From the IMG/VR virus record IMGVR_UViG_2778261344_000012: a stretch of DNA of 14,862 nucleotides; one strand, written 5' to 3'. The DNA comes from a virus. Lineage: Duplodnaviria > Heunggongvirae > Uroviricota > Caudoviricetes. How positions within the stretch are numbered: position 1 is the stretch's first letter; the number at the start of each line of letters is the position of its first letter. A program made the translations under genes and the position numbers. Under the pieces are notes generated by a model. It did no database searches, was not told the origin of the DNA, and was given only the letters and a program-made list of their open reading frames with translations. Of this stretch, positions 11,319-13,793 are shown piece by piece.

Positions 11319-11702
11319 ATGTGTGATATTCAGATGGTTCTTGAACGTTGGGGAGCGTGGGCGGCTAATAATCATGAAGATGTGACCTGGTCGTCCATTG
11401 CCGCCGGTTTTAAGGGATTAATTCCTTCAAAAGTAAAATCTCGCCCGCAATGTTGTGACGATGACGCGATGATCATTTGCGGGTGCATGGCCCGTCTGAA
11501 AAAGAACAACAGCGATTTGCACGATTTATTAGTAGATTATTATGTAGTCGGTATGACATTCATGTCACTGGCAGGTAAGCATTGCTGCTCTGATGGTTAT
11601 ATCGGGAAAAGGTTACAGAAGGCTGAGGGCATAATTGAAGGGATGTTAATGGCATTAGATATCCGGTTAGAGATGGATATCGTTGTTAATAACTCTAATT
11701 AA
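11319..11702 (+). CDS. Q: Late-gene antiterminator Q (Phage_antitermQ family), 127 aa
   Basis: Sequence [26 protein letters not shown]... with Cys-rich [17 protein letters not shown] matches my recollection of Q proteins from E. coli lambdoid and Stx phages. ATG 11319 is preceded by GGAGAAAG, and a hairpin-rich leader follows. Confidence 0.7.
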
Positions 11703-11724
11703 TATGCCAATTGTTTACTGAAAG

Positions 11725-11754
11725 TTATTAAAAATGGGGCGTTGCAACGCCCCC
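11725..11754 (-). terminator. Rho-independent terminator (minus strand) ending the porin/sRNA transcript
   Basis: Perfect palindrome GGGGCGTTGCAACGCCCC (11736..11753) followed on the minus strand by ATTTTTAATAA. Confidence 0.5.
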
Positions 11755-11890
11755 AAAAATAAAGGGTAATATATAACAGAAGGTTTATATAGTTAGAAGC
11801 AAGGTTGTGCTCCTAAAGGAAGTGGCTTGAGGGAGCCACTTATATGTTGGGGAGGCAACGCCTCCCGCAACATATCTTTTTCGTAATCAG
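11755..11890 (-). ncRNA. Candidate IpeX-like small RNA in the porin 3' region
   Basis: About 165 nt between the porin stop (11892) and the minus-strand terminator at 11725..11754, containing the stable hairpin AAGTGGCT/AGCCACTT (11820..11841). Position and length match my recollection of IpeX downstream of nmpC in DLP12; sequence identity not verified. Confidence 0.3.
11842..11883 (+). terminator. Plus-strand Rho-independent terminator (tR'-like) downstream of Q
   Basis: ATATGTTG-GGGAGGC-AAC-GCCTCCC-(G)-CAACATAT, a roughly 15-bp stem, followed by CTTTTTCG; lies about 140-180 nt downstream of the Q stop, as expected for a Q-antiterminated late leader. Confidence 0.55.
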
Positions 11891-11891
11891 A

Positions 11892-12989
11892 TTAGAACTG
11901 GTAAACCAGACCTACAGCAACGATGTCATCAGTGCTTACACCGAGTGCTTTAGTGAAGTCATTTTTGTCAAGCAGGTTGATTTTGTAATCAACGAAAGTA
12001 GACATATTTTTGTTGAAGTAATAGGTTGCACCTACATCAACATATTTGACTAAGTCCTGATCGCCCCATACTCCAAGATCCTTACCTTTAGATTGCAGGT
12101 AAGCAACGGACGGACGCAGACCGAAATCGAACTGATATTGTGCAACAGCTTCGAAGTTTTGAGCTTTATTAGCAACGAAGTGATCAGCAAATACAGTCAT
12201 ATTCTGGGTTTCAGAATAGGTAGTGGCCAGGTAAATGTTGTTAGCGTCATATTTCAGACCTGCGGCCCAAACTTCTGCATTTTTACCGGAAGCAAATACT
12301 TCAGGAAGAACTTTCCCTGCATTAACTTGAGTGTCGGTACGATCAGATTTCGCATAAGTTGCACCGATACCGAATCCTTCGTATTCATAGGTAGCAGAGA
12401 AACCGAAGCCATCACCGTTACCTTCGGTGTAGTTATCGAAATCGCTACGATCGTTTTTGCCTTGGTACTGAGCAGCAAAGTTCAGACCATCAACCAGACC
12501 AAAGAAGTCGTTGTTACGATAGGTTGCAACACCAGTGGTGCGACCAGTCATGAACACATCTGTTTGGGTCCAGGTATCGCCACCGAATTCTGGCAGAACG
12601 TCAGTCCACGCACCGATGTCGTATGCTACACCGTAGTTACGGCCGTAATCGATTGAGCCGTAGTCACCGAATTTCAGGCCTGCAAATGCAAGACGGGTTT
12701 TGTCTTTGGAGGAACCTTGAGATTCAGCGCGGTTGCCTTTGAATTCATATTCCCACTGACCGAAACCAGTCAGCTGATCGTTGATTTGGGTTTCGCCTTT
12801 GAAGCCCAGACGAACATAAGTAGTATCACCATCATCTGCATCGTTAGAGGAAAAGTAGTGCTTGGCATTAACTTTCCCGTACAGATCCAGCTTGTTACTG
12901 TCTTTATTATAAATTTCAGCTGCCTGAGCAGACATCGCCATCAGTACTGATGCAGCTACAGCAGAAATTGCCACTGTTAATTTTTTCAT
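11892..12989 (-). CDS. nmpC: OmpC/NmpC-family general porin (phage lysogenic-conversion porin), 365 aa, with signal peptide
   Basis: Signal peptide [23 protein letters not shown] followed by [16 protein letters not shown], and C-terminal ...VGLVYQF with terminal Phe, are classic OmpC-family features. Located between Q and the lysis genes on the opposite strand, as nmpC is in DLP12. Confidence 0.9.
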
Positions 12990-13480
12990 CGTGAGCCCTT
13001 TTTTTTGAACTATTATTAAAAAATGATGTCACTGCGCGATAAATATTCATCTAATCAATGTGATTATTTCAAGATGTAAGTTTTAGTTTCTCATTTAATT
13101 TGTGAAGTAGATCTCTATTTTTATCTGAACTTTTTCTATCGAAACCTATTTATGGCTCTTATTTGAACAAAAATAAATCTATTAGCTAATTTATATTAAT
13201 GGCTGTTATTTATGGTGGTTCTATAATTCGTCTGTTTAATTTAAACCGGCTAAAAATAACACTGAAAATTATTTATTGGTTATTTGTTGAGGTTTTCTTA
13301 TGTATTTGTGGTGATGTTTTGAACACTCGGTAGCATTCTCATAAATATCATTCAGTGGTTTACGTACGTAAAAAATTGGTTATGCTGTTAAGAGTGGTTA
13401 CTTCGTCACACAGCTTAAACCCGCCGTCGAGCTGGTTTTTCCATTTTTTGAGTCTCGATATTAGCTGATAACTCAATACC
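12990..13480. promoter_or_regulatory. Long AT-rich upstream region of the porin gene (promoter and likely nucleoid-protein-bound regulatory region)
   Basis: About 500 bp of strongly AT-rich sequence with poly-A/T tracts and no credible ORF, immediately upstream of the porin start (12989). Confidence 0.4.
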
Positions 13481-13577
13481 TGAGTTATTCACTGACTCGG
13501 AGTCAGTTACGTTTCTGCTTTTTTGCGATACGTTGTATTCCCTCAATTTACACCCGCTTTGTCTGCGAGGTGGGGTT

Positions 13578-13793
13578 ATGAAATTCATGGATAAGTTAAC
13601 AACTGGAGTCGCCTATGGCACCTCAGCAGGTAGTGCCGGTTACTGGTTTTTACAGCTGCTCGATAAAGTCACTCCCTCACAGTGGGCAGCAATAGGTGTG
13701 CTGGGTAGCCTGGTATTTGGCCTGCTGACGTACCTGACAAACCTTTATTTCAAGATTAAAGAAGATAAGCGCAAGGCTGCGAGAGGTGAATAA
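13578..13793 (+). CDS. S: Class II pinholin (phage 21 S-like) with dual-start motif, 71 aa
   Basis: [71 protein letters not shown]: two transmembrane segments, charged C-terminus, and Met1/Met4 dual starts. RBS GAGGTGGGG precedes the ATG. Confidence 0.8.

Follow-up and report, generated by a model that had tools for sequence, protein, structure and literature searches.

The small regulatory RNA (sRNA) IpeX belongs to the cryptic prophage DLP12 and to phage PA-2, from which it was reportedly described by Castillo-Keller, Vuong and Misra in 2006. Three further systems offer themselves for comparison: the porin-regulating sRNAs MicC and MicF, encoded by separate genes divergent from a porin gene; sRNAs such as CpxQ and DapZ, which derive from the 3′ untranslated region (3′UTR) of a messenger RNA (mRNA) and share its terminator; and the lambda 6S RNA with its counterpart StxS of the Stx phages. 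IpeX is 167 nucleotides (nt) long (review PMC12197685), and both its K-12 and its PA-2 alleles lower OmpC and OmpF (reviews including PMC12197685). In this study we analyzed a 14,862-nt stretch of viral DNA (Caudoviricetes; IMG/VR record IMGVR_UViG_2778261344_000012; hereafter the window), and in particular the spacer 11703-11891 between the late antiterminator gene quuD and a convergent porin gene. Judged by sequence identity, this spacer is the published ipeX locus, an element that is already known. We consider it likely that the window carries the ipeX locus of a DLP12/PA-2-type prophage, with an sRNA in the porin 3′UTR that pairs with host porin mRNAs and that is part of a cassette located between the Q gene and the late promoter pR′.

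The whole window represents a DLP12/PA-2-type lambdoid prophage with the gene order quuD, a 365-amino-acid intact porin on the opposite strand, and then essD, rrrD, and rzpD. The Q-type late antiterminator gene quuD (11319-11702, plus strand) is assigned by Pfam PF06530 (Phage_antitermQ, E 1.5e-52) and by the RefSeq annotation of the identical locus, and the porin of the Lc/NmpC type (11892-12989, minus strand) by Pfam PF00267 (Porin_1, E 1.8e-156) and by 99% identity to Lc of PA-2. The two genes are convergent, the quuD stop codon ending at 11702 and the porin reading frame, including its stop codon, at 11892. The spacer is 98% identical to the quuD-nmpC spacer of DLP12 in E. coli K-12 MG1655 and 97.4% identical to the lc 3′ region of PA-2 (J02580). 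An earlier note on this DNA, made from its letters only, had placed an IpeX-like sRNA on the minus strand here and proposed alignment to K-12 ipeX; the 97-98% identity to the K-12 and PA-2 loci bears that placement out, for an element previously described. IpeX thus lies directly 3′ of the stop codon of an nmpC/lc-type porin, on the porin strand and adjoining the Q gene, at 11725-11891 of the minus strand if its 167 nt are counted from the base after the stop codon, which takes it slightly beyond the terminator.

The same porin-IpeX-quuD order is found in K-12, PA-2, phage 434B, and more than 80 viral contigs. With a 401-nt query over the interval, matches were obtained in 2,533 of 5,426 complete E. 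coli genomes, many of them at 100%, with the annotations "antitermination protein QuuD" and "porin". Compared with DLP12 and PA-2, the locus, the strand, the flanking quuD and nmpC/lc genes, and the terminator are the same. The differences are five base changes from the K-12 spacer, including the terminator loop, which becomes part of a perfect palindrome here, and the porin gene itself, which is intact in the window and split by IS5 in K-12. Since the porin is intact, IpeX should be transcribed from the porin promoter, as in PA-2. The Rfam scan of the whole window returned no family at the gathering score, and 11600-12000 scanned with permissive settings yielded nothing beyond chance matches below the threshold, IpeX being without an Rfam model. 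The RefSeq record of MG1655 (NC_000913.3) annotates micF and micC but no ipeX feature (L001 9341-9529), despite an abundant Term-seq RNA end there.

Three inverted repeats, all located where the earlier note had put them, occur in the spacer: a perfect 18-nt palindrome (11736-11744/11745-11753), a perfect stem of 8 base pairs (bp; 11820-11827/11834-11841), and one 15-bp stem with a single bulge (11842-11852/11865-11875 plus 11850-11856/11860-11866). The opposite polarity of their tails, also observed in the note, was confirmed. On the minus strand the palindrome runs into AUUUUUAAUAAC and on the plus strand into CAAAAAUAAAGG, AUUUUU being confined to the minus strand; for the large hairpin the tail is CUUUUUCGUAAU on the plus strand and AAGUGGCUCCCU on the minus strand, CUUUUUCG being confined to the plus strand. 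The palindrome is indeed perfect, but as a feature of this allele: in K-12 its loop reads TCTCAA, and the conserved part is a GC stem of 6-7 bp only. A further conserved minus-strand helix, 11793-11816, was missing from the earlier list.

The structure is most pronounced on the porin strand. The minus-strand RNA 11891-11720 folds at -62.4 kcal/mol, compared with -32.7 +/- 3.6 kcal/mol for dinucleotide shuffles (z-score -8.2; none of 200 shuffles as good), and the plus-strand fold of the interval has a z-score of -4.3. From the porin stop codon onward, the minus-strand RNA contains helix 1 (11842-11875; 15 bp, one bulged C, -22.2 kcal/mol), helix 2 (11820-11841; an 8-bp stem with the loop CCCUCA at 11828-11833), helix 3 (11793-11816; 9 bp on the minus strand and just 4+4 bp on the plus strand), a single-stranded A/U-rich region at about 11792-11755, and an intrinsic terminator of the porin/IpeX transcript (11730-11753; GC stem 11753-11736 followed by AUUUUU, found by terminator scan, -12.5 kcal/mol). 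The single-stranded region includes an unpaired core, the candidate seed, at 11757-11783. Helices 1 and 2 are supported, in addition to the fold, by covariation and compensatory changes, respectively, in the alignment described below, where helix 3 has four pairs changed on both sides and the core is unpaired in the consensus.

The RNA 3′ ends considered here come from the curated MG1655 Term-seq tables (Adams et al. 2021, PMC7815308, supplementary file 1) and refer to K-12; they were converted by setting the end of quuD, 574339 in K-12, equal to 11702. Minus-strand 3′ ends at 574367/574366, present in two of the three growth-condition sheets (PMC7815308), fall on the last U of CCCCAUUUUU. They correspond to 11730/11729, directly past the GC hairpin and U5, and within the range 11725-11754 in which the earlier note had expected a minus-strand RNA to end. 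In K-12, therefore, the minus-strand RNA exists, with its end at the place predicted from the sequence. A second minus-strand 3′ end, 574476 in K-12 (PMC7815308), corresponds to 11839, 3 nt beyond helix 1, where no U-tract follows; here the porin mRNA may have a stable end, or processing may free the downstream part of IpeX. A Rho-dependent termination region on the minus strand is listed at 574331 (PMC7815308).

In these features IpeX resembles sRNAs of the CpxQ and DapZ type: it shares the terminator of the porin mRNA, has a U-rich stretch before that terminator, and shows a second K-12 3′ end at helix 1 that suggests processing. The promoter scan predicted none between the porin reading frame and IpeX, which are contiguous on the same strand. 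No internal promoter is thus predicted for IpeX, and the 5′ end of the active RNA is a putative one.

One new point of this analysis is that IpeX represents a covarying RNA family present in several phage lineages. Within E. coli, 29 distinct alleles differ mainly in loops and at the bulged C, and they are too alike to assess covariation, with no compensatory pairs among them. Diverged IpeX homologs follow the porin genes of at least five phage lineages, for instance in the P1-like phages P7 and phi456, where the porin is 80% identical, and in several IMG/VR contigs with porins 64-93% identical. For nine sequences from five lineages (alignment A2), the RNAalifold consensus consists of four helices, 11875-11842, 11841-11820, 11816-11793, and the terminator. 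Standard pairs occupy 93.9% of its cells, compared with 35-53% when the partners are slid; 13 pairs are changed on both sides, compared with 2-5 when slid; and the observed covariation score was reached by none of 500 column shuffles. Read in the porin sense, many of these pairs are G·U, which the opposite strand would turn into A·C; this points to selection on the minus-strand RNA. In helix 2 the stem changes from A-U to G-C and from U-A to A-U, and the loop CCCUCA is invariant in all five lineages; this loop is complementary to the porin Shine-Dalgarno sequence GAGGG of ompC and ompF (UGAGGG in ompF).

P7 and the contigs L246/L247 were found via the porin protein and not via the core motif, so that the conservation of their core is not an artifact of the search. 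One viral contig among L248-L324 keeps the first ~17 nt past the porin stop codon and then has a simple terminator (CCTCCGG...CCGGAGGTTTTT) in place of IpeX, which is a natural loss or replacement of the sRNA. A porin match in Salmonella phage SPF_0923 proved to be a chromosomal ompN region and was set aside.

The unpaired core is complementary to the translation-initiation regions of host porin mRNAs. The segment CCUUCUGUUAUAU (11783-11771) can pair with K-12 ompC AUAUAACAGAGGG (-21 to -9, including the Shine-Dalgarno sequence GAGGG) over 13 bp with one G·U, and CCUUUAUUU (11765-11757) can pair with AAAUAAAGG of ompC (-31 to -23) over 9 bp, the two blocks being separated by a 5-by-1 internal loop. 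The same stretch of the core fits ompF from -15 to +9, and the candidate seed 11757-11783 is identical in K-12. When Watson-Crick pairs were scored +2 and G·U pairs +1, IpeX and ompC reached 39, compared with 24.2 +/- 3.8 for 1000 dinucleotide shuffles (z-score 3.95, or 3.9-4.4 over the tests), a value attained by a single shuffle; with the core alone none of 1000 shuffles attained the observed score. On the same metric the validated pairs MicC-ompC and MicF-ompF have z-scores of 2.7 and 1.9, and IpeX-ompF has 2.3. The leader of the phage's own porin lacks complementarity to IpeX (z-score -0.25). Among 558 natural 160-nt windows, only one, the antisense of micF, scored as high as ompC, and the ompN leader was the sole other above 33. 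The hybrid energy of IpeX with ompC is -26.7 kcal/mol versus -22.8 for MicC-ompC, and that with ompF is -18.6 kcal/mol versus -27.4 for MicF-ompF. The 5′ end of MicC, GUUAUAUGCCUUUAUUGUCAC, covers the same ompC segment as the IpeX core.

The diverged lineages differ in the host porin leader that fits them best. For instance, the antisense match of the L246 and L228 3′UTRs to ompC runs from -40 to +21 and takes in 17 of 18 bases of the first codons; the P7-type core has a 6+14 bp fit to ompF, and the MicF string UUAUUUAUUACC occurs in it.

We propose the following mechanism. The porin gene on the minus strand would be transcribed past its stop codon into a 3′UTR of about 160 nt that ends at the GC hairpin and U-tract 11753-11730, and this RNA, whole or as a processed fragment, would be IpeX, which lowers OmpC and OmpF. 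Its core, perhaps together with the anti-Shine-Dalgarno loop of helix 2, would pair with host porin mRNAs over -31 to -9 of ompC and -15 to +9 of ompF and would block ribosome binding in the manner of MicC and MicF, the leader of the phage porin being spared through its lack of complementarity. The complementarity is an observation; that base pairing is how IpeX works we put at slightly better than an even chance.

Several results weigh against this proposal. In the energy test with RNAduplex on 34-nt windows, IpeX-ompC (-26.7 kcal/mol) was not separated from shuffled sequences (-27.0 +/- 2.8 kcal/mol), and ompF likewise did not exceed its shuffles; whole-molecule RNAduplex runs gave meaningless long duplexes. 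The energy test fails because shuffling frees the G+C-rich bases of the hairpins, and the significance of the pairing therefore rests on the alignment-score tests. Lineage L176 scores weakly (z-scores 1.0-1.6). The ompC and ompF leaders scored for the diverged lineages may not be their real targets, and several family members were found by a pattern derived from the core, so that core conservation in them is biased. The abstract of the 2006 study is said to report no complementarity between ipeX and ompC, and its authors may have had mutational data. It reportedly also found repression of ompC to be independent of Hfq and that of ompF to depend on Hfq, a pattern that would fit a long pairing with ompC and a shorter one with ompF. 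Finally, in reviews up to 2025 IpeX is said to act with neither base pairing nor complementarity to ompC and ompF, PMC12197685 being more cautious.

These statements in the reviews, together with the non-significant energy test, favor a different explanation, in which IpeX acts indirectly, by titrating Hfq or another factor or by perturbing envelope-stress signaling, and in which the complementarity is a relic of the origin of the core; a fossil origin could indeed account for complementarity without any present function. We regard this as rather unlikely. While compensatory substitutions alter the helices on either side, the core is conserved and stays single-stranded. The complementarity covers both the Shine-Dalgarno sequence and the start codon, and on the same metric the controls MicC and MicF score lower. 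The leader of the phage porin itself is spared, and the lineages differ in which host leader fits best.

Several alignments bear on the origin of the locus. The plus strand at 11757-11819 aligns with ompC from -31 to +27; the P7-type core, when reverse-complemented, reads AAAAGGGTAATAAATAACATGAAGTTAAAT, a porin region spanning a Shine-Dalgarno sequence and an ATG; and IpeX in reverse complement can be aligned with the micF antisense. They give the ipeX locus the appearance of a porin 5′ end that was copied in inverted orientation and has since decayed. By sequence, the IpeX core could pair with the ompC segment bound by MicC and with the segment of ompF, including the Shine-Dalgarno sequence and AUG, bound by MicF; it differs from both in being the 3′UTR of a phage-borne porin mRNA. 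On balance we lean, by a modest margin, toward the view that IpeX is an antisense RNA of the Mic type, carried by phages and lying in porin 3′UTRs as the inverted fossil of a porin 5′ end, that it silences host porins at their ribosome-binding sites, and that it forms a family, absent from Rfam, of at least five covarying lineages in lambda-like and P1-like phages, with cores tuned to different host leaders.

The largest hairpin also has a second face. Read on the plus strand (11842-11883), it has a predicted energy of -20.8 kcal/mol and is followed by CUUUUUCG (U5), that is, it has the form of the plus-strand terminator claimed by the earlier note; the tR′ role given to it there is not supported, and its T-tract is not conserved in the RNA family. 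It could be a possible accessory terminator. The strong stem with U5, the convergent arrangement of quuD and the porin gene, and the presence of a T-tract after hairpin 1 in all lambda-type alleles (CTTTTTCG or CTTTTAG) would agree with an intrinsic terminator that stops quuD transcripts from entering the porin gene antisense and so insulates the convergent genes, a function compatible with IpeX. Such an insulator is conceivable, though we find it doubtful: the T-tract is shortened to CTTTTAG in about 40% of the alleles and is absent in the P7 and L228 lineages, and in both of these the helix is retained. Of the Term-seq evidence that the earlier note had called for on both strands, the K-12 tables supply the minus-strand ends described above and list no plus-strand 3′ end at 5745xx, which is weak evidence, as quuD may be silent in K-12. 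Loss of the T-tract with retention of the helix suggests that selection acts on the minus-strand RNA. Termination of quuD transcripts by hairpin 1 is thus plausible as an accessory property and not as the reason why the hairpin exists. A plus-strand reading frame for 69 amino acids (11844-12053) begins inside this hairpin and continues antisense across the porin 3′ end; as Pfam gave no match, it was treated as spurious, although it appears as ORF1 in the PA-2 record of the 1980s.

The late promoter of QuuD was sought by comparison with the Stx phages, whose Q proteins are 78-81% identical to QuuD; Q21, of solved structure, is a distant relation. The DNA directly after Q in the Stx2 phage Sakai matches 13358-13440 of the window (76% over 83 nt, E 1e-10) and has no match anywhere in 11703-11891. 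The Sakai PR′ start site was mapped by differential RNA sequencing 258 nt upstream of tR′ (PMC7547250), and a 933W-like record carries a pR′ annotation at the same place. By homology to this region, the pR′ of QuuD is predicted at 13359-13393 on the plus strand, with the -35 element TTTACG (13359-13364), a 16-nt spacer, the -10 element TATGCT (13381-13386; TATCAT in Sakai), and a start near 13393. Its -35 element lies inside the perfect palindrome TTTACGTACGTAAA, a candidate Q-binding element. Conservation of the pR′ block, GTTTACGTACGTAAAAA...TGTTAAGAGTGGTTACTTCGCCACACAGCTTAA with a small GC hairpin and a T-run after it, extends over E. coli, Shigella, Trabulsiella, Pantoea, Citrobacter, and Xenorhabdus, and the initial transcribed block AGAGTGGTTACTTCGCCACACAGCTTAA is better conserved than the -10 element. 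The late leader up to essD (13394-13586, plus strand) would comprise this initial transcribed block, a hairpin with T-run at 13412-13445, and a hairpin with a T-rich tail at 13492-13536. In relatives the first of these hairpins reads CCCGCC...GGCGGGTTTTT, with compensatory changes between genera; here and in PA-2 it is weakened by AGCTGG in place of GGCGGG or AGCGGG.

The earlier note had read the spacer itself as a late promoter with a short leader ending at a tR′-like terminator at 11842-11883, which Q-modified polymerase would read through, antisense across the porin gene, to the lysis genes. The plus-strand 15-bp hairpin followed by a T-tract and the location directly 3′ of Q, where pR′ lies in lambda and the Stx phages, speak for this reading, which we nevertheless consider very improbable. 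The conserved pR′/qut block of this Q family lies beyond the porin, at 13359-13445, and two pR′ signature strings occur once each in the window, both outside 11703-11891. A scan for sigma-70-like promoters, by a crude consensus, gave no hit on either strand of 11703-11891. The pR′ block begins about 30-90 nt past the Q stop codon in more than 10 porin-less relatives, and in all of the more than 80 loci with a QuuD at least 97% identical, Q is separated from the block by ipeX, the porin, and the porin upstream region. In addition, the regulatory region of the DLP12 lysis operon has been placed upstream of essD, as far as the citation in PMC7918800 conveys. Neither the late promoter nor the read-through leader proposed for the spacer thus finds support; the homolog of the lambda 6S RNA and StxS system, of the QuuD type, is in the window from 13359-13445 onward, and 11703-11891 has neither a promoter nor the conserved initial transcribed block. 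One observation points the other way: K-12 Term-seq lists no short pR′ RNA at 5771xx-5773xx, which is uninformative if pR′ is silent there, and the position of pR′ accordingly rests on homology. By this comparison, the QuuD late promoter probably sits between the porin start and essD, at 13359-13393.

Since the pR′ block follows the porin in porin-bearing loci and follows Q directly in porin-less ones, IpeX, the porin, and the porin promoter region (about 11678-13355) are, by this comparison of loci, a reverse-oriented cassette inserted between Q and pR′. Porin-less Q genes are homologous to quuD only up to nt 359 of its 384, some 25 nt short of the stop codon, so that the last quuD codons belong to the mosaic junction; the last eight or so (IVVNNSN, from about 11677) arrived with the cassette or arose from its junction. 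Unrelated minus-strand genes without Pfam matches are found between Q and the pR′ block in C. braakii (L017 3391-5726) and directly upstream of the block in Shigella phage SfII (L007 1-1500), where a Q gene was not found in the stretch examined. It seems that reverse-oriented cargo has settled repeatedly at the site upstream of the pR′ block. The GenBank record of PA-2 annotates two CRP-binding sites (L005 1434-1454 and 1730-1750) in the A/T-rich porin upstream region (12990-13350 of the window), the second of which overlaps the pR′ block.

The sRNA itself having been described previously, the present analysis adds the relocation of pR′, a covarying model of IpeX across several lineages, and a testable pairing mechanism. 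The position of pR′ matters for the annotation of late promoters in DLP12-like prophages, which are found in almost half of the complete E. coli genomes (2,533 of 5,426). Pairing with the ribosome-binding sites of ompC and ompF is a simple mechanism, contrary to the standing description of IpeX, and if true it would explain how lysogens of the PA-2 type exchange the host porins for the phage porin. OmpC is the receptor of PA-2, and repression by IpeX would thus also serve superinfection exclusion.

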